A DNA stretch of 64,000 nucleotides from Eubacteriales bacterium (GTDB lineage: Bacteria; Bacillota; Clostridia; Oscillospirales; CAG-272), in the NCBI GenBank assembly GCA_045580325.1, contig JAZNNR010000018.1, forward strand, positions 33,931 through 97,930, written 5' to 3'. Positions 21,274-53,144 of the stretch are shown here, in pieces. Below the pieces are notes generated by a model that searched no databases, was not told where the DNA came from, and was given only the letters and a program-made list of their open reading frames with translations. Within the stretch, counting starts at the first letter, position 1. Every line of letters starts with the position of its first letter. Made by a program: the position numbers and the translations under genes.

Positions 21274-22434
21274 ATGGAGCTTACCTACGTTGCGACCTGT
21301 CTTTTCGGACTTGAAAAATTTTTAGGAGAAGAAATCGACGCCCTCGGATATAAGCGTATATCGACTATCGACGGCCGCGTAACATTTACGGGAGATATTT
21401 CTGCCGTCGCGCGCTGTAATATCGGTATGCGCTTTGCCGAGAGGCTTTATATAAAGCTCGGAGAGTTCACCGCTGACAGCTTTGACTCTCTTTTTGAGGG
21501 CACAAAAGCGCTTCCTTGGGAAGATTATATCGGTATAAACGATGCCTTCCCCGTTTCGGGACATTCGGTAAAGAGCAAGCTTTTCAGTATTCCCGACTGT
21601 CAGTCTATCGTTAAAAAGGCTATCGTTGAGCGCCTTAAATCGAAATATCATATATCCTTTTTCGAAGAAAACAAAACGCTTTACAAAATAGAGTTTTTTA
21701 TTCTGAACGACAGCGCAAGTCTTATGATAGACACCTCGGGTGTTGCTCTTCACAAGAGAGGATACCGTCCCGCATCAAACATCGCACCGCTTCGCGAAAC
21801 TCTTGCGGCGGCACTTGTGAAGATCGCCCGTCCGCGCGAAGAGGTACTCTTCTGGGATCCTATGTGCGGCTCAGGCACTATCGCTATTGAGGCGGCTCTT
21901 ATGCAGACAAACTGCGCGCCCGGTGTGAACCGCCGCTTTGACTCTGAAAAATTCCCGCAGATCGACTCTTCCATTTGGGAAATGGCGCGCGAGGAAGCAA
22001 GAGATAATATAATACGCGACTCGCAGTTTGAGGTCTATGCCTCTGACATTGATATGAACTGCGTTGAGCTCACCCGCGACAACATACGCCGCGCAGGTGT
22101 GGGCGGTACGGTCAAGGCATTTCAGCGCAACGCACTCGAGATAAAAACTGGCGGCAGGCGAGGCACGGTCGTATGCAATCCGCCTTACGGAGAGCGTCTT
22201 TTCTCTATGGAACAGGCGCAGGAGCTTTATCGAAATATGGGACGAGCCTTCTCATCGCTTGACAACTGGCAGATATACGTGCTGACCTCTCACGAGGGCT
22301 TTGAAAGACTTTACGGCAGACGCGCGGACAAGGTCCGCAAGCTCTACAACGGTATGATAAAGTGTAACTTCTATCAATTTTTCAAAAAACAGGACTCTTT
22401 TTCCCAAAAACACAAAGGAAATTACAAGAAATGA
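21274..22434 (+). CDS. THUMP-domain class I SAM-dependent RNA methyltransferase (YpsC/RlmL-like)
   Basis: 386 aa. SAM-binding DPMCGSGTIAIEAAL and the catalytic NPPYGERL motif. Confidence 0.85.
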   Translation: MELTYVATCLFGLEKFLGEEIDALGYKRISTIDGRVTFTGDISAVARCNIGMRFAERLYIKLGEFTADSFDSLFEGTKALPWEDYIGINDAFPVSGHSVKSKLFSIPDCQSIVKKAIVERLKSKYHISFFEENKTLYKIEFFILNDSASLMIDTSGVALHKRGYRPASNIAPLRETLAAALVKIARPREEVLFWDPMCGSGTIAIEAALMQTNCAPGVNRRFDSEKFPQIDSSIWEMAREEARDNIIRDSQFEVYASDIDMNCVELTRDNIRRAGVGGTVKAFQRNALEIKTGGRRGTVVCNPPYGERLFSMEQAQELYRNMGRAFSSLDNWQIYVLTSHEGFERLYGRRADKVRKLYNGMIKCNFYQFFKKQDSFSQKHKGNYKK

Positions 22435-23762
22435 AGAAAAACGAGCTTTATACAGTAGAAATAAGCGATATGAACAATCTCGGCGCTGGAATATGCAAGA
22501 TCGACGGCAAGGTCGTTTTTGTGCGCGGCGGAGTTACGGGGGACAAGCTTGAAATTGGTATAATCAAAGACCTTTCAGACTACGCTGTCGCCCGTGTGAA
22601 CAAAATAATTGAGCCCTCACCTATCCGAGTCGAAAACACCTGTCCTTCATTCAAGCGCTGCGGCGGATGCTCTTTTCGCCACGTGAATTACGAAAACGAA
22701 AAGCTTTTCAAGAAAAATTACATAGAAAATGCCTTCAAAAAGGTCGGACTTTCGGTAAATATCGAGGACGTGCTTTCGACAGGCTGTCCCGACGGGTATC
22801 GCAACAAGGTACAGTACCCTGTCGGCAAGGATTGGGAGATCGGATTTTTCGCAGAGCACAGCCACGACATAGTTGAGGTTTCCGACTGTCCCTCTCAGGA
22901 CGAGAGCTTTGGCGCGATACTTGACGAGATAGTACGCTTCGGCAAGGAAAAAAAGATTCCGCCTTACGATTTTGAAAGCGGAAAAGGACTTGTTCGCCAT
23001 ATTTATCTGCGTAAAGGTCGCGGAAGCGGCGATATTATGGTCTGCCTTGTCATTAACGGCAAAACGATGCGCGAGGCTCCCGAGCTTGCAAAAATACTCG
23101 TTTCGCGCTTCCCTGCTGTCAAGTCGGTCATACTTAACATAAACGAAAAGCGCACGAACGTCATTCTCGGCGACAAAAACATAACCGTTTACGGAAGCGA
23201 CACCATAGAGGATATTTTCTGCAGACTTAAGGTGAAAATTTCGCCAAAATCATTCTATCAGGTGAACCGCGAATGTGCCGAGCTTATCTGCAAGAAAGCC
23301 GCAGAGCTTGCCGATCTGAAGCCGAGTGAAAAGCTTGTTGACCTTTTCTGCGGAATAGGCACTATCGGACTTTCGATGATAAAAGACTATCCGGAGTCGA
23401 GCCTTATCGGTGTTGAAATAATCCCCGACGCCGTTGAAAACGCCACGGAAAACGCTGCTCTGAATCATATGAAAAATACGAAATTCATCTGCGGTGATGC
23501 AAACTCGCCCGAAATATTCGAGGCCGACGTTATCGTGGTCGACCCGCCCCGCAAGGGCTGTGCAAGCGAGCTTATAAAACGCATTTCCGAGATCTCGCCG
23601 TCGAGAGTTATTTACGTTTCGTGCAATCCCGACACCCTCGCGCGCGACTGCAAGCTCTTTGATGCCGAGGGATACAAGGTTACAAGAGCATTTGCGGCTG
23701 ATATGTTTTCTCGCACGGGGCATGTGGAAAGTTTAGTTTGTCTGACTCGTCAGACAAACTAA
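22431..23762 (+). CDS. rlmD: 23S rRNA (uracil-C5)-methyltransferase, RlmD/RumA family
   Basis: 443 aa. N-terminal TRAM domain, Fe-S cysteines CPSFKRCGGCSF, SAM motif DLFCGIGTIG, DPPRKG and a C-terminal GHVES. The last 9 codons are a perfect 10-bp-stem hairpin (23736-23759). Confidence 0.85.
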   Translation: MKKNELYTVEISDMNNLGAGICKIDGKVVFVRGGVTGDKLEIGIIKDLSDYAVARVNKIIEPSPIRVENTCPSFKRCGGCSFRHVNYENEKLFKKNYIENAFKKVGLSVNIEDVLSTGCPDGYRNKVQYPVGKDWEIGFFAEHSHDIVEVSDCPSQDESFGAILDEIVRFGKEKKIPPYDFESGKGLVRHIYLRKGRGSGDIMVCLVINGKTMREAPELAKILVSRFPAVKSVILNINEKRTNVILGDKNITVYGSDTIEDIFCRLKVKISPKSFYQVNRECAELICKKAAELADLKPSEKLVDLFCGIGTIGLSMIKDYPESSLIGVEIIPDAVENATENAALNHMKNTKFICGDANSPEIFEADVIVVDPPRKGCASELIKRISEISPSRVIYVSCNPDTLARDCKLFDAEGYKVTRAFAADMFSRTGHVESLVCLTRQTN

Positions 23763-24384: not shown

Positions 24385-24450
24385 TTTTTGAGCAAAACTC
24401 AAAAGTTCGTTTTACTGCTATTTAGTATAACATATGAAAGGAGTAAGGCA

Positions 24451-24957
24451 ATGATACCTTATTATTTGAAAAAATATATAACTGATGCAAAAGAGAAAAA
24501 GGATTCTACTGTTGGAATACTTGCTTCTTCTACAGGAAATACAAATTTAGAAATATATTTTTACGGTGATACTGTGAAAATAGAAAAAACACCGTACATA
24601 GTCGATGCCGAATTTCCATGCTTGATTGTTGCAAAAGACCCTGTAACAAACGAAAAGTTCACCATTTTTGACGGAATGAAGCACGGATATGATGCAATGT
24701 TTTGCAACGAGCCATGCAATGACGCCACAAGAGAATTAAGACATTATGAGTATTATAACGGGAAAGTGCAAATTACGCTTGGCTACTCAATTGATTACGA
24801 AGATGAACGAGATGAATATGAATTCAACGAAAACGGCGATGTCATATTGACGTATGGAACTTTAGATTGGGAGCAAGCAAAATCTATTGGATTCGATTGG
24901 CTTTCGTTGAAATTTGTAGATGTGAAAAAGGAATTTGTTGATCTTGAGTTGGCTTGA
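24451..24957 (+). CDS. Hypothetical cytosolic acidic protein (168 aa)
   Basis: ATG at 24451 follows GAAAGGAG. The sequence is AT-rich (about 35 percent G+C in one 60-nt line counted by hand). No motif recognised. Confidence 0.65.
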   Translation: MIPYYLKKYITDAKEKKDSTVGILASSTGNTNLEIYFYGDTVKIEKTPYIVDAEFPCLIVAKDPVTNEKFTIFDGMKHGYDAMFCNEPCNDATRELRHYEYYNGKVQITLGYSIDYEDERDEYEFNENGDVILTYGTLDWEQAKSIGFDWLSLKFVDVKKEFVDLELA

Positions 24958-24967
24958 CCACAAATTA

Positions 24968-25116
24968 TAAAATATACCTTTTGCTCTCTTGACCCATATA
25001 GAGAGTGTGTGTTTATTGACACGAAAATAAGTGCAAACCCGTAGGGGCTGGCGCCCACGACAGCCCGTGCGTATATTTAGGCTTTTCGGGACGTCGAGGA
25101 CGCCGGTCCCTACAAC
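24968..25116 (-). repeat. Repeat R copy A (contains a REP-like GTAG-hairpin...hairpin-CTAC element, family E1)
   Basis: 24968-25097 is identical base for base to 25731-25860 (130 nt). Contains GTAG-GGGCTG-gcgcccacga-CAGCCC and GGGAC-gtcgaggacgcc-GGTCC-CTAC. Confidence 0.9.
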
Positions 25117-25175
25117 AGAATGCTCGAAAGTTCATTTTACAGCAGTTTAGTATAACAGATTGAAAGGAAGCAAAA

Positions 25176-25733
25176 ATGCAGAAAAAATCACGCCAAAGAA
25201 AAGAACGACGAAACATGGACCGATCAACCTCTGATGTTCTATCAAGGCAAACGCAAACAATGAAAACAGCTTTCCTCGATTATTTAGGTGCTACAATTAT
25301 GTTTTTTGTGATGGCGCTCGTTGTATTTGTGGTTGGACTTTTGACCGAAGACGCATCGCATTCCAAACGTATTATTTTTGGTGCCACACCTATTATTCTT
25401 GGTTTCACTATATTTTTCGCTTTTCTTTTTCTTCGTCGATTTGTAATTTTTATAAAGATAAATAAGATCAAATCTTCAAGTGAACAAACTATCAAAATTA
25501 CTTGTAAGAAAGTGGCATTTTTAACTCAACCTATATCCAGAAATTCTTTCGTAATTATATGTATTGTTTTAACAGACGAAAACGGCAAAAAGTATTATGA
25601 CATAGTAAATGGAATTTCTGATATTGCTAAAAAAAGAACACGAGCGGAGCTATTAAACGCAAAGATTACACTTAATTGCTATGCGAATACAAAATTTGTG
25701 AAAACCTATCAGGTCGATACAGTCAAGGAGTAA
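25176..25733 (+). CDS. Hypothetical membrane protein (two TM helices plus a C-terminal domain)
   Basis: 185 aa with RBS GAAAGGAAG. It is flanked on both sides by repeat R. Confidence 0.65.
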   Translation: MQKKSRQRKERRNMDRSTSDVLSRQTQTMKTAFLDYLGATIMFFVMALVVFVVGLLTEDASHSKRIIFGATPIILGFTIFFAFLFLRRFVIFIKINKIKSSSEQTIKITCKKVAFLTQPISRNSFVIICIVLTDENGKKYYDIVNGISDIAKKRTRAELLNAKITLNCYANTKFVKTYQVDTVKE

Positions 25734-25882
25734 AATATACCTTTTGCTCTCTTGACCCATATAGAGAGTGTGTGTTTATTGACACGAAAATAAGTGCAAA
25801 CCCGTAGGGGCTGGCGCCCACGACAGCCCGTGCGTATATTTAGGCTTTTCGGGACGTCGAAGGCGCCGTCCCCTACCAAAAG
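25731..25882 (-). repeat. Repeat R copy B (E1 family)
   Basis: The first 130 nt are identical to copy A. It then diverges as GGGACGTCGAAGGCGCCGTCCCCTACCAAAAG. It starts on the stop codon of the preceding gene. Confidence 0.9.
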
Positions 25883-25992
25883 CCAAATTCTATATGCCCT
25901 TACGGATAATAAACCTCGCTATCGCTGCGGCGTATCGAAAAAATAAATTTTACGGAAGTACAAGTTAATATTCCGCTTAAAAGGAGCAAATA

Positions 25993-27096
25993 ATGAAAAG
26001 AAAAACAGGTAAGGATAAGAAGAAAATGACAACAGCGATAGTTTTGATAAGTATAGCGTCGGTGTTAGCTTTGACAGTGATAGGCTGGTGGATATTCTGC
26101 GTTTCAATGTACAATTCCAACTTTAACGTCCGTTGTGATGATTATGAGCCTTTTATGCTGCGAGTAGAAGATTTTGACCGACTTAAGTGCAAGGAATACA
26201 AATTCAAATCAGACAAGGGGCAGGAGCTTGCAGGATATCTATACAGTGCGGGGGAAGATCAGCGCGCAGTCGTGATCATTGCCCACGGATTTGGCGGCGG
26301 TCACAATTCATATATGGATGCAGCCAACTATTTCGCGCAAAACGGTTATTATGTTTTTGCCTACGACGCAACAGGTTGCCTGAGTAGTCAAGGCGACGGC
26401 GTGGGCGGAGTTCCGCAGGGTGTGATAGACCTTGATCACGCCATTTCATTTGTAGAAGAAAATGAGGATATTCCGAAGCTTCCCATCGTTCTTTTCGGAC
26501 ATAGCTGGGGTGCATATTCTGTAAGCGCTGTTTTGACATATCACCCCGAAGTCAAGGCAGTAATCGCATGCTCGGGCTTCAACAGAGCGTCCGATATGTT
26601 TGAATCGGGCGGAAAATCACAGGCAGGCAGCATAATTCATGCCATGATTCCGTTTATCAGAGTCCACGAGCAAGTCAAGTATGGCAAATATGCCTCAAAC
26701 ACCGCGATGGACGGCTTTGAAGCGGCGGAAAACACATCTGTAATGATAGTACATAGCGCAGATGACAACGTTATCGGCATAGAATACGGCTACGACAAAT
26801 ATTATGAAAAATACGAGAATGACGAGCGTTTTGTTTTTGTAAGATATGAGGACAAGGGGCACAACGACATTTTAAAGAACCCCGAGGACACTTATATGGA
26901 CGAAGTACAAGCCGAGTACACAAAGTGGCTTGAAACACTCGATTACGATTATAATTCAAAGGACAACAAAGACCGTTTCAGAGAAGAAAAGATTCAGTAT
27001 CTTAACGAAACTCTTGACCACGCAAGACTGAGTAACAGACTTGATACAGATATGTTCGCGCACTTTTTGGACTTCTATAATCAAGCCGTGCAGTGA
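25993..27096 (+). CDS. Membrane-anchored alpha/beta hydrolase
   Basis: 367 aa. N-terminal TM helix, nucleophile elbow GHSWGAY, HGFGGG oxyanion region, and a late Asp/His (HSADDNV and KGHND). Confidence 0.8.
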   Translation: MKRKTGKDKKKMTTAIVLISIASVLALTVIGWWIFCVSMYNSNFNVRCDDYEPFMLRVEDFDRLKCKEYKFKSDKGQELAGYLYSAGEDQRAVVIIAHGFGGGHNSYMDAANYFAQNGYYVFAYDATGCLSSQGDGVGGVPQGVIDLDHAISFVEENEDIPKLPIVLFGHSWGAYSVSAVLTYHPEVKAVIACSGFNRASDMFESGGKSQAGSIIHAMIPFIRVHEQVKYGKYASNTAMDGFEAAENTSVMIVHSADDNVIGIEYGYDKYYEKYENDERFVFVRYEDKGHNDILKNPEDTYMDEVQAEYTKWLETLDYDYNSKDNKDRFREEKIQYLNETLDHARLSNRLDTDMFAHFLDFYNQAVQ

Positions 27097-27097
27097 T

Positions 27098-27129
27098 ACG
27101 GACCGTCGAGGACGCCGATTCCTACCAAA
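27098..27129 (-). repeat. Partial E1 element (hairpin-CTAC half only)
   Basis: GGACCGTCGAGGACGCCGATTCCTACCAAA begins 2 nt after the hydrolase stop. It shares the GTCGAGGACGCC core with the other copies. Confidence 0.75.
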
Positions 27130-47730: not shown

Positions 47731-47763
47731 GGCTTCTGCTGAAAAGCAGAAGCCTTTGGTTTT
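47731..47763 (+). terminator. trpB intrinsic terminator
   Basis: GGCTTCTGCT-gaaa-AGCAGAAGCC followed by TTTGGTTTT. Confidence 0.8.
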
Positions 47764-47770
47764 ATAAATT

Positions 47771-47823
47771 TGAGATAAAATCACACCAATATTTAATGCT
47801 GAACTCACCGACAAATTGAAATT
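47771..47823 (-). repeat. Cassette 3'-boundary module B (long form)
   Basis: The minus strand directly after the HAD stop reads AATTTCAATTTGTCGGTGAGTTCAGCATTAAATATTGGTGTGATTTT, homologous to the sequence after the 51761 gene stop. Confidence 0.7.
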
Positions 47824-48606
47824 TTACAAACTCTTTAATATCCTATGTTCTATAAATTTTGCAACACCATCGGCATCGTTGCTTTCTATAACATAATCAG
47901 CAACAGATTTAACTTCATCAATTCCATTGGAAACAGCAATACCCAACCCGCACATTTTTATCGGTTCAATATCGTCTTGGTCATCTCCAAAATAGGCCGT
48001 TTCATTAGGAGAACAGTTACAAATATCCAGCATTGCCTTAATGCCATTCCACTTTGTTGCTGTTGTGTTCATTATTTGCAATAAATAACCATGAGCAATT
48101 GTATAATGCAAATCTTCTGTCAATTCTTTTTTGACAAAGTAAAGTGTTTCCTCGCTGTCAAGGTGAACCAGTATTTTTAATACGCCTTCCTTGTTGGCAA
48201 TGCCAATCAAATTGTTTGAAACAATTGTTTTGTAATCTTCAATAGGATGATTTGAGTATGCACGGTCTCCTGTTTCGAGGGTAATTCGAAGATTAGGATA
48301 GCATTTTAACGCATTCAATAAATGCTCGGCACTTCTTTGACAGATAGCATAATCCACTTGTTGATTTCTGTGGATTATTCTTGCACCATTGGAAACAACC
48401 ATTGCATCAAAGCCAATCAAATCACCAAATTGTTTTGTTGTACGTAATGGTCTGGCTGTGGCAACCATGATGTTAATTCCACGTTTCTTACATTCTTTAA
48501 GGACTTTGATAGTACGCGCGGATAGGGTTTTATCTGTATGTAGCAAAGTTCTATCTAAATCCACGACAATAGTCTTAACACTTGCAGTGTTTATCATTGC
48601 TATCAC
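47824..48606 (-). CDS. Cof-type HAD-IIB family hydrolase
   Basis: 260 aa. Motif I VVDLDRTLL and motif IV FGDDQDDIEPIKMCGLGIAVSNG. Confidence 0.85.
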   Translation of the reverse strand: MIAMINTASVKTIVVDLDRTLLHTDKTLSARTIKVLKECKKRGINIMVATARPLRTTKQFGDLIGFDAMVVSNGARIIHRNQQVDYAICQRSAEHLLNALKCYPNLRITLETGDRAYSNHPIEDYKTIVSNNLIGIANKEGVLKILVHLDSEETLYFVKKELTEDLHYTIAHGYLLQIMNTTATKWNGIKAMLDICNCSPNETAYFGDDQDDIEPIKMCGLGIAVSNGIDEVKSVADYVIESNDADGVAKFIEHRILKSL

Positions 48607-48628
48607 ATCCTTTCGTCAAATTGGAATT

Positions 48629-48952
48629 TTACATTCTAATTTCCGTATGAAAATATTGTTCTTGAAATGCAACTTGCCGCATAATTTCATCTTTTGTAAA
48701 GGATACACCTTCTGGTGCTACAACCCACTTTTCTTCTATGTCATCATATCTATGAATGATGGCAATTACTTTGCCACTAAACTCTTTAATGGGTTCATTT
48801 ACGCCAACTATGTATGCATCTTGTTCTTCTCCGTCAGCAGCTACAATACCCTCTATATAGCCGTAGTTGACAGAATAGTAGATGTCTTTATGCTCTGGAT
48901 GATATGTTCCTAATGGGCGATCAACAATAACCTTAACAAATTTTCCTAACAT
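48629..48952 (-). CDS. Small inorganic-pyrophosphatase-like protein
   Basis: ATG at 48952 follows GAGGT by about 6 nt and gives MLGKFVKVIVDRPLGTYHP...NYGYIEG...DGEEQDAYIVG...RYDDIEEKWVV, which resembles short PPase-family proteins. The alternative start at 48982 overlaps the upstream stop. Confidence 0.6.
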   Translation of the reverse strand: MLGKFVKVIVDRPLGTYHPEHKDIYYSVNYGYIEGIVAADGEEQDAYIVGVNEPIKEFSGKVIAIIHRYDDIEEKWVVAPEGVSFTKDEIMRQVAFQEQYFHTEIRM

Positions 48953-48978
48953 TTTAACCTCGACAAAACAGAATTTGT

Positions 48979-49203
48979 TCATTTCTTTTTCTTGTTAAGA
49001 TAGATAATAACGGCAATCAAAATGGCCACAATTATTGCCGAAATCAATCCACCAACGATCAGCCAATGTGTTTGGTAAGTAAGAAATCTAGCAGTAGGGC
49101 CATCTGCACCACCGATAATGCCAACGGATGAGGCTTCATTGTTACAACCACCAAGGCACAATACAAGAATTAATAATGAAACAAAAATCATTAACTTTTT
49201 CAT
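48979..49203 (-). CDS. Small lipoprotein with a C-terminal TM anchor (74 aa)
   Basis: ATG at 49203 follows AAAGGAG. Lipobox LILVLCLGGC. C-terminal hydrophobic helix plus a KKKK tail. Confidence 0.6.
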   Translation of the reverse strand: MKKLMIFVSLLILVLCLGGCNNEASSVGIIGGADGPTARFLTYQTHWLIVGGLISAIIVAILIAVIIYLNKKKK

Positions 49204-49246
49204 ACACGGACACTCCTTTGTCAAGTTTTTCAACCTATTAGACCTA

Positions 49247-49413
49247 TTCAAGTTTATCGATTAGATACCTAAGTGAAATAATTATATCATAAAAATTCCA
49301 AAAAGTAAATAGGACGGCTCAATTTTTTACAAATTGAACCGCCCTACGTCTTGTAGGGACAGGCGTCCTCGACTGTCCGCTTATTACGGCGGCAGCAAGC
49401 CACCGCCCTACAA
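49247..49413 (+). repeat. E1+P module copy 1 (REP-like element fused to a leftward promoter and shared 5' UTR)
   Basis: About 97 percent identical to 52373-52531 (roughly 5 substitutions and one 8-nt indel by hand alignment). Core: CCGCCCTAC-gtctt-GTAGGGACAG-gcgtcctcga-CTGTCC...GGCGG-cagcaagcca-CCGCCCTAC. Confidence 0.9.
49281..49309 (-). promoter_or_regulatory. Promoter carried by E1+P copy 1, driving the lipoprotein/PPase-like/HAD operon
   Basis: On the minus strand: TTTACT, 17 nt ending TGa, TATAAT. Confidence 0.65.
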
Positions 49414-49519
49414 AAAGAGTCATAATGATTCTATTAAAAACCGTTATGACTCAAAAAGATTGCAAAACATTGCAATTCTAAATAATTTATGGTACAATGT
49501 AAAAGAGGAGCGTGAGTAT

Positions 49520-50392
49520 ATGGAACTGTATGCAAGTGATATGTTCTTTCGTGGCGGTAACGAAAAAGAACAAGCATATGATTGTTGTATTCATGGAAAT
49601 ATTATTTTTAAAATTGGGGATAATTTACTCTCTGATAACACAGAGTGGTGTGTAAGCGCCTCGGCATATAGGTTCTTGCATACTCTCTTTGAAAATCATT
49701 TTATGGGTGCAGAAGAGTTTATGATTTCTTGTTGTGGACATTTTATGGTTCCGTCGGAAGATAAAATGTCTGTAAGTATCGTCGGTTGCAGTAATGGTAT
49801 TGATTTCAACATTATTCACGAAGACGAAAGCATTACCATTGTAACAGCAGATGATGCTGAATATCATATTCCCTTTGAGGACTATAAAAAGGCGGTTATA
49901 TCTTTTGCTGAACAAGTAATGGACTTCTACAAAGCAAACCCACCCCGTGAGTTTGAAGACGATTTTAACAAAGACGGATATAGTGCTTTTATCACCGAGT
50001 GGTATTCGCTATATGACAAAGCAATTTCAATGCTGAATGAGATTCCGAAAATCAATCCCATTACTTTTGAAGATTATGAAGCTTGCACTGAAAATGAAAT
50101 TACGGGTATAAGTAAGGCAGGAATATCGCTTAAATCATTTGGTTTTATCAATTTCAAAGAGTGTGCATATAATTTTAAGCAAACAGAGGGCGGTTCGGGA
50201 AAGTGTGTCGGAGAAAGAGAAATCACAAACCTTTCATTTACTTTCTACACATCGCCCAAACCGATTATGATTAAGTTCATTGAGAAAAACAAGTTTATTG
50301 AGTTTATCACAAAAGAAAACACGATATATCGTTTTAATAAACTCCAAAAAGAGATTTTGAAATATGGATATAGCACAAGAGATATGACATAA
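49520..50392 (+). CDS. Hypothetical protein (290 aa)
   Basis: ATG at 49520 follows AAGAGGAG. Its own promoter is TTGCAA, 17 nt, TACAAT at about 49470-49497. The first 62 codons of track ORF 49334..50392 are read-through of the E1 repeat. Confidence 0.7.
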   Translation: MELYASDMFFRGGNEKEQAYDCCIHGNIIFKIGDNLLSDNTEWCVSASAYRFLHTLFENHFMGAEEFMISCCGHFMVPSEDKMSVSIVGCSNGIDFNIIHEDESITIVTADDAEYHIPFEDYKKAVISFAEQVMDFYKANPPREFEDDFNKDGYSAFITEWYSLYDKAISMLNEIPKINPITFEDYEACTENEITGISKAGISLKSFGFINFKECAYNFKQTEGGSGKCVGEREITNLSFTFYTSPKPIMIKFIEKNKFIEFITKENTIYRFNKLQKEILKYGYSTRDMT

Positions 50393-50404: not shown

Positions 50405-50683
50405 ATGTCACATAGTAAATATAATAAAAGAGGTCACTCACTATATTTAGATAATTGGAATCCGAATGCAAAAAAATATATCAACGAATGCAAAATATGC
50501 GGATATAAAGGTTATAGTCCTGCAATAGAAGAATCCGACTTTTTAAGCAACAGCGACAAAGATCTCTTTACATTTTCAATTAACAAGGCAATATATGAGG
50601 AATTGACCAAAACATTTTCCGCGTTAGAATTGGATGAGTACGGTCGTTGTAAGGATTGTGCAAGAATTCAAGATAAAAAGTAA
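50405..50683 (+). CDS. Hypothetical zinc-ribbon-like small protein (92 aa)
   Basis: Two Cys pairs (CKICGYKG and CKDCARIQ) and RBS AAGGAGG, 12 nt after the upstream gene. Confidence 0.6.
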   Translation: MSHSKYNKRGHSLYLDNWNPNAKKYINECKICGYKGYSPAIEESDFLSNSDKDLFTFSINKAIYEELTKTFSALELDEYGRCKDCARIQDKK

Positions 50684-50690
50684 TTAGATA

Positions 50691-50727
50691 AAAATGGCTA
50701 TGACATTCCGTGTGTCATAGCCATTTT
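50691..50727. terminator. Bidirectional terminator after the 49520-50683 gene pair
   Basis: AAAATGGCTATGAC-9 nt-GTCATAGCCATTTT. Confidence 0.75.
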
Positions 50728-50733
50728 AAAATA

Positions 50734-50770
50734 ATTTGCACCAAGTTTGCACCAAAGCACAAAACCAAGC
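50734..50770. repeat. Fragment of boundary module B (TTTGCACCAA direct repeats)
   Basis: ATTTGCACCAAGTTTGCACCAAAGCACAAAACCAAGC, compared with GTTGCACCAAATTTGCACCAAAATCACACCAAC at 51695-51727. Confidence 0.6.
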
Positions 50771-50779
50771 ATAAGAAAA

Positions 50780-50812
50780 CCCCGAAAACCGTGATGGTTT
50801 CGGGGTCTTTGA
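50780..50812 (-). terminator. Probable terminator downstream of the GNAT gene
   Basis: CCCCGAAA-10 nt-TTTCGGGG, with TTTTCTT following on the minus strand. Confidence 0.55.
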
Positions 50813-50906
50813 ATACTCTTTGAAATAATACAGGTCATCTCTTTTTTCGGGGGATTAAGCACGCCGTTTGACACCGTAAATAACATTCTGCAAAGAATTT
50901 GCCAAA

Positions 50907-51359
50907 TCACTTTTTCATCTCCATATAAGGAATAACCTCGTAGCCGCATTTTTTATAAACGTTCACGGCTCTTTCGTTTTCTTCTTCGACTTCCAAGCGA
51001 AATATTGCCCCGGGGTACTTATCTTCAATGAATTTAAGAAAACGGCTTCCGATTCCCAAGCCTCTATACTCGGTTTTAATATATATATCCTCGCTCCACA
51101 TACACGGCTTTCCGAATTCTGTGGAAAAGCTTTTGGCAACCATAGCGTATCCTTGTATTTCTTCTGCGTTTTCAAAAATATATCCTTCAAGATACGGATT
51201 ATCACTAAGGCAGGCATTTATGTCTGCTTCGAATATTTCCTGCGAGCCGTTAGTTAATACCGCAGGAGAAGCATAGAAGACTCTCATCATTTCGAGAACC
51301 TGTCCTCTGTCCTTCTCTTCCATACCTCTGATTACACTTTGCACTTTATTTGCCTCCAT
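50907..51359 (-). CDS. GNAT-family N-acetyltransferase
   Basis: Acetyl-CoA motif EYRGLGIGSRFLKFIE. The track start at 51389 lies inside the -10 box of the upstream promoter, so ATG 51359 (MEANKVQ) is preferred. It has no clear Shine-Dalgarno. Confidence 0.8.
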   Translation of the reverse strand: MEANKVQSVIRGMEEKDRGQVLEMMRVFYASPAVLTNGSQEIFEADINACLSDNPYLEGYIFENAEEIQGYAMVAKSFSTEFGKPCMWSEDIYIKTEYRGLGIGSRFLKFIEDKYPGAIFRLEVEEENERAVNVYKKCGYEVIPYMEMKK

Positions 51360-51387: not shown

Positions 51388-51416
51388 ATTATACCATAAT
51401 TTCGGCAAAAAGTAAA
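51388..51416 (-). promoter_or_regulatory. Promoter carried by E1+P copy 2, driving the GNAT gene
   Basis: On the minus strand: TTTACT, 17 nt ending TGg, TATAAT. Confidence 0.65.
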
Positions 51417-51512
51417 TAGGACTTTTTACAAATTGAACCGCCATACGTCTTGTAGGGACAGGCGTCCTCGACTGTCCACCTGTTACGGCAGCAGTAAGCT
51501 GCCGCCCTACAA
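51388..51512 (+). repeat. E1+P module copy 2
   Basis: AAAAAGTAAATAGGACTTTTTACAAATTGAACCGCCATACGTCTTGTAGGGACAGGCGTCCTCGACTGTCC...GGCAGCAGTAAGCTGCCGCCCTACAA. The second hairpin has compensatory changes (GGCAGC/GCTGCC versus GGCGG/CCGCC). Confidence 0.85.
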
Positions 51513-51516
51513 CCAA

Positions 51517-51578
51517 AACAGACCCCACAAAACCGTGAGGTCTGTAAAAATATTGTTCGAAGAACTTATCTCTTTGAG
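51517..51578 (-). repeat. Copy 3 of the rpsI tail plus terminator (module T)
   Basis: The minus strand reads TCA AAG AGA TAA (S K R stop), then GTTCTTCGAACAATATTTTT, then hairpin ACAGACC..GGTCTGT. It is near-identical to the sequence after the real rpsI stop. Confidence 0.85.
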
Positions 51579-51596
51579 TTTTAGCAATACCGTTTG

Positions 51597-51683
51597 ATAT
51601 CGTGAATATCGTGGAAATATCGTGTGATATCGTGCATTTATCGTGTGTTTTCGTGCGATATCGTGAATATCGTGAGTATCGCC
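51597..51683 (-). repeat. Nine phased (A)TATCGTG / CACGATAT repeats with a period of about 10 bp (array A3)
   Basis: TCGTG begins at 51600, 51609, 51620, 51630, 51641, 51651, 51661, 51670 and 51679. Spacings are 9, 11, 10, 11, 10, 10, 9 and 9. Confidence 0.9.
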
Positions 51684-51689
51684 CTATAA

Positions 51690-51760
51690 AGTGTTGCACC
51701 AAATTTGCACCAAAATCACACCAACATTCAACGCTGTTCTGCTCGACAAATTGGAATTTG
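51690..51760 (-). repeat. Cassette 3'-boundary module B (long form)
   Basis: The minus strand after the TGA of the 51761 gene reads CAAATTCCAATTTGTCGAGCAGAACAGCGTTGAATGTTGGTGTGATTTTGGTGCAAATTTGGTGCAAC. Confidence 0.7.
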
Positions 51761-52363
51761 TCATTTTGTAACACACCAAATAGCTAATGGCACATAGCAG
51801 CTCACTAATACGAGTCTTTGCCAAAGACCACCGTGTCTCAAAACAGTATTTGCGAATTTTTCTTTCTCCCCCATAATGAAGAAGCAGAAGAACAAGAACG
51901 TTGCAATAAAGCTAACAAGCGAGATCGCTCCCATAATTATATCTCCCGCTTGAAACTGCATTATTGCCAAGAGCAACGGTACAGCAATTAATGTCATAAA
52001 TCCGATCGCAGAAGCACCGCCGTGAATTTTAGTCAGTGCATCCTCGTCTTGTCTGTTCTCGTTCAATGGACAAAAGCCCGAAATAATCTCACAGCCGATA
52101 CCGTATATTGCAAGTAATATCCATATTGCGATTGCCAAGCCACCGATGTTTTCTTGATACAACGCATACGGAGCAATACAGAAAACGACACCCGAGAGAA
52201 TGCACCACACATTGTAAATCCACTTCACAGGACTTTGCCGTGAGCCCAGTACCGAGAGTGCCATTTCTTTATGCTTATAGTTTGGATAAAAATGCGCAAG
52301 CAACAATGGTAGTAGATTATCTGCTACCAAAATAATAATCCATAATATTTTCATGTATTTCAT
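51761..52363 (-). CDS. Integral membrane protein (DUF998-like, six TM helices)
   Basis: 200 aa, hydrophobic throughout. The N-terminus ILWIIILVADNLLPLLLAHFYPNYKHKEMALSVLG resembles DUF998 as I recall it. Confidence 0.65.
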   Translation of the reverse strand: MKYMKILWIIILVADNLLPLLLAHFYPNYKHKEMALSVLGSRQSPVKWIYNVWCILSGVVFCIAPYALYQENIGGLAIAIWILLAIYGIGCEIISGFCPLNENRQDEDALTKIHGGASAIGFMTLIAVPLLLAIMQFQAGDIIMGAISLVSFIATFLFFCFFIMGEKEKFANTVLRHGGLWQRLVLVSCYVPLAIWCVTK

Positions 52364-52372
52364 CTCGTCAAA

Positions 52373-52531
52373 TTCAAGTTTATCGATTAGATACCTAAGT
52401 GAAATAATTATATCATAAAAATCCCAAAAAGTAAATAGGATTTTTTACAAATTAAACCGCCCTACGTCTTGTAGGGACAGGCGTCCTCGACTGTGCGACT
52501 ATTACGGCGGCAGCAAGCCACCGCCCTACAA
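52373..52531 (+). repeat. E1+P module copy 3
   Basis: About 97 percent identical to copy 1. It is directly followed by module T copy 2. Confidence 0.9.
52407..52435 (-). promoter_or_regulatory. Promoter carried by E1+P copy 3, driving the DUF998-like gene
   Basis: On the minus strand: TTTACT, 17 nt ending TGa, TATAAT. Confidence 0.65.
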
Positions 52532-52535
52532 CAAA

Positions 52536-52603
52536 AACAGACCCCACAAAAATGTGAGGTCTGTAAAAATATTGTTCGAAGAACTTATCTCTTCGAGAAC
52601 TGT
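52536..52603 (-). repeat. Copy 2 of the rpsI tail plus terminator (module T)
   Basis: The minus strand reads CAG TTC TCG AAG AGA TAA (Q F S K R stop), against the real gene CAG TTC AGC AAG AGA TAA. The same spacer and terminator hairpin follow. Confidence 0.9.
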
Positions 52604-52685: not shown

Positions 52686-52722
52686 CAAAAATAAACAGAC
52701 CCCACAAAAACGTGAGGTCTGT
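52686..52722 (-). terminator. rpsI intrinsic terminator (module T, native copy)
   Basis: On the minus strand: ACAGACCTCAC-guuuuu-GUGGGGUCUGU followed by UUAUUUUU, 20 nt after the rpsI stop. Confidence 0.8.
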
Positions 52723-52742
52723 AAAAATATTGTTCGAAGTGA

Positions 52743-53144
52743 TTATCTCTTGCTGAACTGAGGTGCACGACGTGCTGCCTTGAGACCGTACTTCTTTCTT
52801 TCCTTCATACGAGGGTCGCGAGTGAGGAATCCTGCCTTCTTAAGAGGTGCGCGGAATTCATCGCCTGCGAGAAGAAGTGCTCTTGCAATACCGTGGCGAA
52901 TTGCTCCTGCCTGTCCGGAGAAGCCGCCGCCCTTAACGGTGCAAACTACATCGAACTTACCAACTGTGTCGGTAACTCCGAAGGGCTGGTTTATAACCAA
53001 CTTGAGTGTGTCAAGTCCAAAATAATCATCAATGTCGCGTCCGTTGATGGTAACCTTACCGGTGCCGGCGAACAAACGAACTCTTGCAACAGATTTCTTT
53101 CTTCTTCCTGTGCCGTAAAAATACGGCTTTGCGCTTGTATACAT
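52743..53144 (-). CDS. rpsI: 30S ribosomal protein S9
   Basis: 133 aa with [19 protein letters not shown] and a C-terminal [20 protein letters not shown]. Confidence 0.97.

Follow-up and report, generated by a model that had tools for sequence, protein, structure and literature searches.

In streptococci, the 3' end of rpsI is the target of several families of integrative and mobilizable elements (IMEs) and integrative and conjugative elements (ICEs) endowed with a tyrosine integrase, and short and long direct repeats, tandem accretions and decayed elements have been described at this site (PMC5357655). Two other kinds of system are close to the locus considered here. The GTAG-tagged repetitive extragenic palindromes (REPs) were recorded by a 2013 survey in Proteobacteria, Cyanobacteria, Chloroflexi and the Planctomycetes-Verrucomicrobia-Chlamydiae (PVC) group only, Firmicutes not being listed (PMC3733652), and group 1 REP-associated tyrosine transposases (RAYTs) have been reported in Clostridia (PMC5581495); complete integrons are absent from Firmicutes (PMC4889954). 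We analysed a stretch of 64,000 nucleotides, hereafter the window, from a member of the Oscillospirales (Eubacteriales bacterium, CAG-272; assembly GCA_045580325.1, contig JAZNNR010000018.1, positions 33,931 to 97,930), and in particular its island 2, in which three copies of a GC-rich repeat, E1, stand beside three copies of a promoter, P, each reading on the minus strand into a different set of small cargo genes. An earlier note on this DNA had seen in E1 and P one fused unit. The model we propose is that island 2 results from the tandem accretion, at the rpsI 3' end, of small integrative units devoid of an integrase gene, and we give this model a probability of about 0.7.

It is the constancy of the context of P that leads us to this model. 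In the window and in its relatives the same succession recurs, namely the rpsI 3' end or a remnant of it (core CTCnAAGAGATAA), a terminator, optional REPs, a hairpin, P, a junction motif (siteA), the cargo, a second motif (siteC), GGTGCAAA repeats, CACGATAT iterons and again the core. Away from the window's rpsI, the true core and its terminator (D4c) are followed by an 85-nt remnant, the DUF998 unit, the GNAT unit, two plus-strand genes and the lipoprotein unit. The DUF998 unit is made of D4b, E1, P, siteA, the DUF998 gene, siteC with GGTGCAAA repeats, and iterons; the GNAT unit of D4a, E1, P, the GNAT gene, a further remnant (AAGAGATGA), a second type of terminator and GGTGCAAA repeats; and the lipoprotein unit of the hairpin, E1, P, siteA, the lipoprotein, PPase-like and HAD genes, a degenerate siteC module and a terminator shared with the core genome. 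The matches (DUF998; GNAT; lipoprotein, weak PPase-like and HAD hydrolase) agree with the earlier statement that the three cargo sets are unrelated.

The units, like IMEs, are flanked by direct repeats of the rpsI end, and their presence is polymorphic between strains: contig L123 (contigs other than the window are designated in this manner) is devoid of the DUF998 unit, the limits of which are D4 repeats. The remnant in D4b differs from the resident rpsI by a synonymous Ser codon, and D4a is the att junction that joins two accreted units. Arrays of 5-8 CACGATA(T/A) repeats always lie beside an rpsI-derived core, on its cargo side, in the window as well as in L131, L144, L145 and L150; these iterons are probably arm-type sites, predicted to bind an integrase or an excisionase.

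Scanning metagenomes for the hairpin followed by P yielded 18 contigs, in which hairpin, P and siteA precede at least 15 different and unrelated open reading frames (ORFs), and strains of the window's own species carry five cargo sets behind the P unit. The idea of a mobile promoter and leader serving any captured ORF is thereby upheld as far as a conserved unit on mobile DNA is concerned, but P does not insert alone: it is one end of an att module of integrative units that target rpsI. In 18 of 18 copies the hairpin forms the sharp left edge of this module, at GGCGGTTCAA, and the leader ends in siteA, CTAATCGATAAACTTGAATTTGACGRAGG. Upstream of the module, one finds the intact rpsI 3' end and its terminator (L145, L148), rpsI remnants (..AAGAGATAA) and a terminator, at times after CACGATAT iterons (L143, L144), or else the 3' end of a tyrosine integrase gene (L150, L152, L157) or what remains of it (L143, L149, L153). 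In the case of L150, the order is rpsI, core CTCCAAGAGATAATTA, terminator, GGTGCAAA repeats, a 315-aa protein, Rep_OBD+helicase, ArdA, a 387-aa integrase, hairpin-P-siteA, a nitroreductase-like cargo, siteC ACAAATTCCAATTTGTCGAG, GGTGCAAATTTGGTGCAAC, CACGATAT iterons and the core again, so that a 16-nt direct repeat, CTCCAAGAGATAATTA, is present at the rpsI stop and after the iterons. The 387-aa integrase matches PF00589 at 1.9e-27; the 315-aa protein has only an N-terminal SAM-like integrase domain and no similarity to the former.

Units without an integrase gene lie between two cores in L144, L145 and L148, the same layout grammar being followed in L166, and a tyrosine integrase is present in the relatives L150, L152, L157 and L165-L168. 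With more distant homologs of this integrase (59-74% identity), too, a promoter and a cargo gene separate the integrase gene from the core, one cargo being an AIPR abortive-infection gene. Our literature searches returned no description of the hairpin-promoter-site module. TnpB-like genes (OrfB_IS605 / Cas12f1-like_TNB) were also seen beside ArdC-like genes inside elements with integrase homologs (L165 2925-4184, L168 3969-5237).

These relatives bear directly on a purely local history, in which the three copies would be paralogous intergenic segments produced in one lineage by segmental duplication and homologous recombination, without any dedicated mobility, and P an ordinary gene promoter. 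Such a history would account for the mosaic similarity of the three copies, copies 1 and 3 sharing the leader and copies 2 and 3 the terminator, and for a window in which no recombinase is encoded. It is nevertheless quite unlikely in view of the 18 contigs, with their varied cargo and upstream contexts, including the position directly after an integrase gene, of the rpsI 3' remnants with a synonymous difference that flank the units, and of the 16-nt att direct repeat of L150.

The accretion model would operate as follows. In the circular form of a unit, siteC, the GGTGCAAA repeats, the iterons, the core, the terminator, the hairpin, P and siteA would be joined as a ~400-nt att module. Integration at the core would split this module, leaving terminator, hairpin, P and siteA 5' of the cargo and siteC, repeats and iterons 3' of it, and this split would place P just 3' of the terminator, where it would restart transcription and read into the cargo. 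Each unit would be an independent transcription unit to which the cargo genes bring only their own Shine-Dalgarno. The complete relatives of the L150 type encode the tyrosine integrase, a Rep of the rolling-circle replication (RCR) type and ArdA, and their block of hairpin, P, siteA and cargo has the integrase gene on one side and the right arm on the other; the window units would be decayed copies, or would be moved in trans by an integrase, as in cis-mobilizable elements (CIMEs). Observed are the anatomy, the direct repeats, the differences between strains, the variety of the cargo and the separability of E1, and inferred are the activity of P, the integrase-driven movement of the int-less units and the way in which cargo is exchanged.

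Several observations weigh against this model. The 64-kb window contains no integrase homolog and its units may be fossils; an integrase being present in the relatives, we filed them as int-less, that is decayed or CIME-like. Near copy 1, in the lipoprotein slot, neither an rpsI core nor iterons can be recognised, and its assignment to an old unit comes from the similarity of its module alone. In L166, the integrase is followed by an arm and a core, and the hairpin-P-siteA-GNAT-siteC array lies beyond that core, outside the integrase-bearing element and after attR, so that the P module could belong to the locus downstream of rpsI itself and need not form part of every element. Finally, the P core CCTATTTACT..TTATGnTATAAT also occurs in six viral contigs that are unrelated (L135-L140), where a Shine-Dalgarno and a start codon follow it. 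The hexamer region alone is therefore generic and its likeness is no proof of common descent; it is solely the flanking hairpin and siteA that support a common descent of the P copies. The same viral contigs suggest that a CCTA extension 5' of the -35 box is a favoured promoter form in these hosts.

The rpsI site also receives another kind of element. In L121, L122 and L124-L126, a large ParA/ParB/SpaA element, with a 1563-aa SpaA-domain protein, begins at the base that follows the rpsI stop codon, and in L131, from a sample that also yielded this element, a 50-nt rpsI 3' remnant (9154-9103) lies beside its presumed far end. Two integration systems, with a short and a long direct repeat, thus seem to use rpsI here.

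The promoter scan returned P at exactly the sites where three identical minus-strand promoters had been announced beside the E1 copies of island 2 (Table 1). Each copy reads TCCTATTTACT-17 nt-TGnTATAAT, every E1 copy being followed on the minus strand by TCCTATTTACTTTTTG and then TTATG(A/G)TATAAT, and all three sites are scored as TTTACT-17-TATAAT with TG before the -10 box and 10 of 12 hexamer matches. P thus has the features demanded of a sigma-A promoter with an extended -10, that is a -35 box near TTGACA, a spacer of 16-18 nt, TGn and TATAAT. In the 64-kb window, TTTACT-N14-TGnTATAAT has only three matches, which are the three P copies, and the hexamers are kept across them while the sequence of the spacer varies. 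These data support the prediction of P as a near-consensus sigma-A type promoter with extended -10, which would be active in the cell. The T-rich tail of the P-module hairpin overlaps the -35 box. As the earlier note had it, copies 1 and 3 also share their leader (49246-49314 and 52372-52440, 99% identical, family D5), the common stretch 3' of P being 33-35 nt long. The position of P immediately after E1 needs a correction of detail: adjacency is the rule in every copy, but in copy 1 the two are separated by 8 nt (TTGAGCCG) that are the 3' arm of the P-module hairpin and not a part of E1.

Adjacency does not amount to fusion. In L131-L134, which belong to the window's own species and have flanks 96-97% identical to it, the 64-nt E1 segment 49348-49411, flanked in the window by a 9-10 nt direct repeat (A)CCGCCCTAC, is precisely absent; the copy 1 site reads ...AACCGCCCTAC|AAAAAGAGTC..., and nothing is missing from P, the leader or the lipoprotein gene. 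L131 has one more P copy, 5' of a 165-aa gene, which follows the hairpin GGGCGGTTCAA..TTGAGCCGTCC alone and is devoid of a REP doublet, and the metagenome relatives have other REP types or none 5' of the hairpin. Conversely, the proposed check on whether E1 copies elsewhere carry P gave 0 of 143 sampled type 1 cores of other species with P, the E1 tail or the leader next to them. The fused unit has thus to be abandoned, and E1 is better described as an incidental REP-like insertion between terminator and hairpin, gained and lost independently of P. The same facts, and the constant inclusion of P in the grammar that runs from core and terminator to siteA, make it most improbable that E1 and P constitute a single element resembling a miniature inverted-repeat transposable element (MITE), with an outward promoter and inserting 5' of genes, although E1 and P are neighbours in all three window copies, REP-like units look mobile and are widespread, and outward-reading promoters on small repeats occur elsewhere, for example in Correia elements.

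E1 itself belongs to another family of repeats. Its three copies (plus strand, 49322-49416, 51421-51515 and 52440-52534) are ~95 nt long, GC-rich and 88-95% identical (family D2), and contain an invariant 30-mer, CGTCTTGTAGGGACAGGCGTCCTCGACTGT, which the window contains exactly 3 times, the expectation from shuffles being 0. Each is composed of two inverted hairpins tagged GTAGGG/CCCTAC: type 1, GTAGGG-GGACAG gcgtcctcga CTGTCC (49353-49378 in copy 1, plus strand), and type 2, CGGCGGC agcaa GCCACCG-CCCTAC (49387-49411). Both have the form of GTAG super-family hairpins, with GTAGGG + GGAC[N]..[N']GTCC in the first case and GTAGGG + CGGTGGC..GCCGCCG in the second. With one genome taken per species, the type 1 core was found at at least 120 loci, all in metagenome-assembled genomes (MAGs) of gut or rumen Oscillospiraceae, Acutalibacteraceae or unclassified Clostridia; many of the loci listed form inverted pairs or lie where a contig ends, their flanks being unrelated, and several contigs come from the same MAG. 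At the variable stem position, 97% of the 143 sampled units have a Watson-Crick pair, all four pair types being used, where independence would give 41%. Once the in-frame REP inserts are removed, a RAYT-like ORF of L102 reaches 79.5 bits on NF047646, for a cut-off of 80, and 26.2 bits on Y1_Tnp, where the cut-off is 23. The GTAG tags, the covarying stem, the wide spread and the RAYT-like gene lead us to conclude that E1 is, as far as its sequence allows us to judge, a cluster resembling REPs or bacterial interspersed mosaic elements (BIMEs).

As to the RAYT-like gene of L102 (424-1032), it is split in frame by three REP-like units, which encode VGTGVLDCPQ twice and GQSRTPVPT once; in the window, no similar gene was seen, the only matches being to REP-coded peptides. 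A known structured RNA was considered for E1 and rejected, neither E1 nor P nor the leader matching an Rfam family at the gathering threshold or at a permissive E-value. Folding of E1 gave z-scores of -1.8 to -5.4 with structures inconsistent between copies, and what is conserved is the hairpin units and not one global fold. A third GTAG unit at the E1 tail (GTAGGGCGG) proved to be the 5' arm of the P-module hairpin.

The limits of the cargo show a regularity of their own: homology between strains or elements breaks at siteA or siteC. In L123, a DMP19 gene replaces the lipoprotein, PPase-like and HAD genes by a swap that lies exactly between siteA and siteC, and siteA of copy 1 is a point where the cargo homology between strains breaks. 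In L150, L152 and L157, the integrase gene stands directly 5' of P and siteA, the three contigs share 93-95% identity from this gene through siteA, and beyond siteA their cargo is unrelated. L161 has the DUF998 cassette at 99.4% identity (4 differences in 625 nt, from CGAG|ATG to TTTGTCGAG|), and there both the promoter (TTGAAA-17-TATAAT) and the downstream flank differ from those of the window; look-ups of the HAD and DUF998 proteins returned only contigs of ~1 kb, that of DUF998 being the one used for this comparison. The siteC motif, of ~20 nt (ACAAATTCCAATTTGTCGAG), follows nearly every cargo stop codon, with 23 matches against 5.6 in shuffles. Inside multi-gene cargo, the junctions are hybrids of siteC on the left and siteA on the right, just 5' of the Shine-Dalgarno of the next gene, and look as if an att module between two cargos had been precisely removed. 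A scan of viral contigs for siteC gave 3 matches, all inside coding regions and consistent with chance.

These junctions suggest that cargo would be exchanged by recombination, in a manner resembling by analogy the exchange of integron cassettes. The Oscillospirales platform, formed by the hairpin, P and siteA together with the tyrosine integrase at rpsI, might then be a functional analogue of an integron, in which single-gene cassettes ended by siteC would be captured, stacked into operons and exchanged by a recombination not described so far. Its anatomy, with P, siteA, cargo genes bearing only a Shine-Dalgarno and multi-gene arrays, is that of a platform with a promoter, its function being predicted. 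In this reading siteA and siteC would be recombination sites, P would be comparable to the Pc promoter, and the recombinase would be the adjacent tyrosine integrase, the 315-aa Int-like protein or the HUH Rep. This proposal extends the accretion model and does not exclude it, and we hold it as tentative, with the balance of probability against it. The breaks of homology, the L161 cassette, the count of siteC, the hybrid junctions and the position of the integrase gene all speak in its favour, but the recombinase acting on siteA and siteC is putative only, and the apparent crossover falls at the edge of a ~20-bp palindromic motif and not at its centre, which is atypical of a simple core site of tyrosine recombinases. 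Neither site has the architecture of attC, and the arms of the motif are devoid of compensatory changes; the 387-aa integrase scores 67 bits on TIGR02249, the cut-off being 265. Several cases are also explicable by homologous recombination between conserved flanks, or by deletion between the 11-12 nt direct repeat of siteA and siteC. The identification of siteC with attC was itself rejected, its ~20 nt being compared with the 57-141 nt of attC, and no GTTRRRY or RYYYAAC boxes being visible.

Could the two motifs act in the transcript instead, by 5'/3' pairing, processing or translation initiation, and be conserved for expression? Their positions would suit such a role, siteA lying at the predicted mRNA 5' end and ending in GACGGAGG just before the start codon, siteC coming directly after stop codons and before the next Shine-Dalgarno, and parts of the two being able to pair. 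We consider it improbable: in L114 the motif flanks a cargo gene in opposite orientation that has its own terminator, the motif is itself palindromic, its copies are direct repeats with no compensatory changes seen, and the coincidence of the homology breakpoints with the motif is the signature of an event at the DNA level. Pairing of siteA and siteC between the untranslated regions was accordingly discarded as the main explanation.

Related motifs occur beyond this species. One of them, AAATTTTGATTTGTCGG, is found beside REP units in other Oscillospirales species, and its presence beside such clusters indicates that the platform system may be widespread. In L114 the motif surrounds cargo genes in either orientation, and in L065 (2530-2850) inverted copies of AAATTnnnnTTTGTCGG bound a ~300-nt unit with REP-like hairpins, such copies being also found on either side of cargo genes of both orientations; the AAATTnnnnTTTGTCGG units may be a MITE-like or att-like family of modules related to siteA and siteC.

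The coordinates of the features are collected in Table 1. The GNAT gene, which the earlier note held to lack a Shine-Dalgarno, has one, for the in-frame codon GTG at 51344 follows GGAGG at a distance of 8 nt, and a start at this codon gives a 145-aa product, as in the gene calls of sister strains.

Table 1. Features of island 2 and of the adjoining rpsI locus, in window coordinates.
Feature	Coordinates	Strand	Remarks
Promoter P, copy 1	49281..49309	minus	-35 TTTACT 49309-49304; 17-nt spacer ending TGa; -10 TATAAT 49286-49281 (predicted)
Promoter P, copy 2	51388..51416	minus	TTTACT-17-TATAAT with TG (predicted); 3' arm of hairpin deleted
Promoter P, copy 3	52407..52435	minus	TTTACT-17-TATAAT with TG (predicted)
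P-module hairpin (GGCGGTTCAATTTgtaaaAAATTGAGCCGTCC)	49312..49343	minus	Intact in copy 1
Leader, copy 1	49246..49280	minus	Last 19 nt, 49246-49264 (CTAATCGATAAACTTGAAT), are junction siteA
Leader, copy 3	52364..52406	minus	siteA is 52364-52390 (CTAATCGATAAACTTGAATTTGACGAG)
E1 core, copy 1	49353..49411		Inverted doublet of REP-like units
E1 core, copy 2	51452..51510		Compensatory change in type 2 stem (CGGCAGC/GCTGCCG)
E1 core, copy 3	52471..52529		
rpsI and its own terminator	52688..53144	minus	rpsI 52743-53144; terminator 52695-52722; attachment target
rpsI-end cores	52743-52755 (rpsI), 52585-52597, 51566-51578		Plus remnant 50836-50846
D4b	52530..52602	minus	rpsI 3' remnant CAGTTCTCGAAGAGATAA encoding QFSKR*; terminator 52537-52564
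D4a	51511..51583	minus	rpsI 3' remnant encoding SKR*; core CTCAAAGAGATAA 51566-51578; intrinsic terminator 51518-51545
Older att remnant	50767..50846	minus	AAAAGAGATGA 50836-50846 and type 2 terminator, 3' of GNAT; GGTGCAAA repeats then at 50727-50750
CACGATAT iteron array	51600..51685	minus	Adjoins att core
siteC (CAAATTCCAATTTGTCGAG) and distal module with TTGGTGCAAATTTGGTGCAACAC	51701..51760	minus	3' of DUF998
Cargo 3, DUF998 gene	51761..52363	minus	
Cargo 2, GNAT acetyltransferase gene	50907..51344	minus	Start GTG 51344
Cargo 1a, small lipoprotein gene (74 aa)	48979..49203	minus	Sole cargo of the slot in strains L131-L134
Internal junction lipoprotein/PPase-like	48959..48979	minus	AACAAATTCTGTTTTGTCGAG; homology with L131 breaks at 48972
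Cargo 1b	47824..48952	minus	PPase-like 48629-48952; HAD hydrolase 47824-48597
Internal junction PPase-like/HAD	~48607-48630	minus	AAAATTCCAATTTGACGAAAGG
siteC and degenerate distal module D7	47766..47823	minus	End of cargo slot 1; shared terminator then at 47731-47754

Some neighbouring features deserve mention. The longest ORF of the PPase-like gene (48629-48982) begins within the junction motif, its likely start being the second ATG, at 48952, after GAGG. The plus-strand genes 49520-50392 (290 aa) and 50405-50683 (92 aa, with CxxC pairs) are without a Pfam match and conserved between strains; they are divergent from P copy 1 and have a predicted promoter of their own, TTGCAA-17-TACAAT, and exact-protein look-ups returned no record for either product. 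A tandem motif, TTGGTGCAAA(T/C)TTGGTGCAA, is found on both att arms, where it follows the second type of terminator and closes the siteC module (50727-50750 and 51690-51712 in the window, ~9010-9035 in L131, ~8660-8690 in L150). Elsewhere in the window, island 1 (24388-27125, plus strand) is a second array of small unrelated genes, coding for a 23S_rRNA_IVP protein, two ORFs without a Pfam match and an alpha/beta hydrolase. Its spacers contain 146-nt repeats (24968-25113 and 25731-25876, 97% identical) with REP-like GTAGGG hairpins, and a common promoter-like or leader segment is present at 24398-24435 and 25123-25160. Island 1 lies directly 3' of a RumA-like methyltransferase gene (22431-23762); rumA is an integration target in streptococci.

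In conclusion, the puzzling repeat pattern of island 2 would be the footprint of serial integration at rpsI, and would show how, in uncultured gut Clostridia, small accessory genes arrive with a promoter of their own behind an insulating terminator. For the most part these are variants of known things, that is IME accretion at rpsI, REP elements and an ordinary strong promoter, among which the exact cassette junctions stand out: the precision of the cargo boundaries at siteA and siteC points to cassette exchange in a phylum without integrons and, if this is true, gut bacteria would possess a gene-capture route not known before, and the unit would be a compact expression cassette of natural origin.

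The closest relatives of the system are the rpsI IMEs and ICEs of streptococci (for example IMESag-rpsI) and the CIMEs of Streptococcus thermophilus. As in these, the last rpsI codons are targeted and a direct repeat of the gene end is generated, the complete relatives possess a tyrosine integrase and an RCR-type Rep or relaxase-like protein, and related or decayed units stand in tandem, some of them without an integrase and yet flanked by att sites. The differences lie in the host, an uncultured gut member of the Oscillospirales, in the very small size of the units (0.65-2.5 kb), and in the conserved module of hairpin, promoter and siteA that leads into a single variable cargo slot ended by siteC.

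E1 is comparable to the REP, BIME and REPIN (REP doublet forming a hairpin) systems and their RAYTs by its GC-rich GTAG-tagged hairpins, arranged as an inverted doublet, extragenic and just 3' of a terminator, by the many loci and MAGs in which its units occur, and by the RAYT-like gene present in one carrier genome. It differs by its occurrence in Clostridia, the range of GTAG-tagged REP-like repeats, and of a RAYT-like gene, being thereby widened to the Oscillospirales, and by a type 1 loop that is long and conserved (GTCGAGGACGCC). With the Correia repeat enclosed elements (CREE) and the outward promoters borne by insertion sequences, the locus has in common that a repeated sequence gives a promoter to the neighbouring gene; in contrast to them, it is the att module of an integrative unit, rather than the REP-like repeat, that carries P, and the gene under its control moves with it.

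With integrons, finally, the system would share a promoter beside a recombinase gene and 5' of a putative exchange site, mostly promoterless single-gene cargo with a conserved site after each gene, and arrays of cassettes in which the newest insertion lies next to the fixed anchor. It departs from integrons in its integrase, which is not IntI and has the same orientation as the cargo genes; in place of attC hairpins of 57-141 nt it has ~20-bp palindromic motifs, and a second level of recombination exists here, at the rpsI core.

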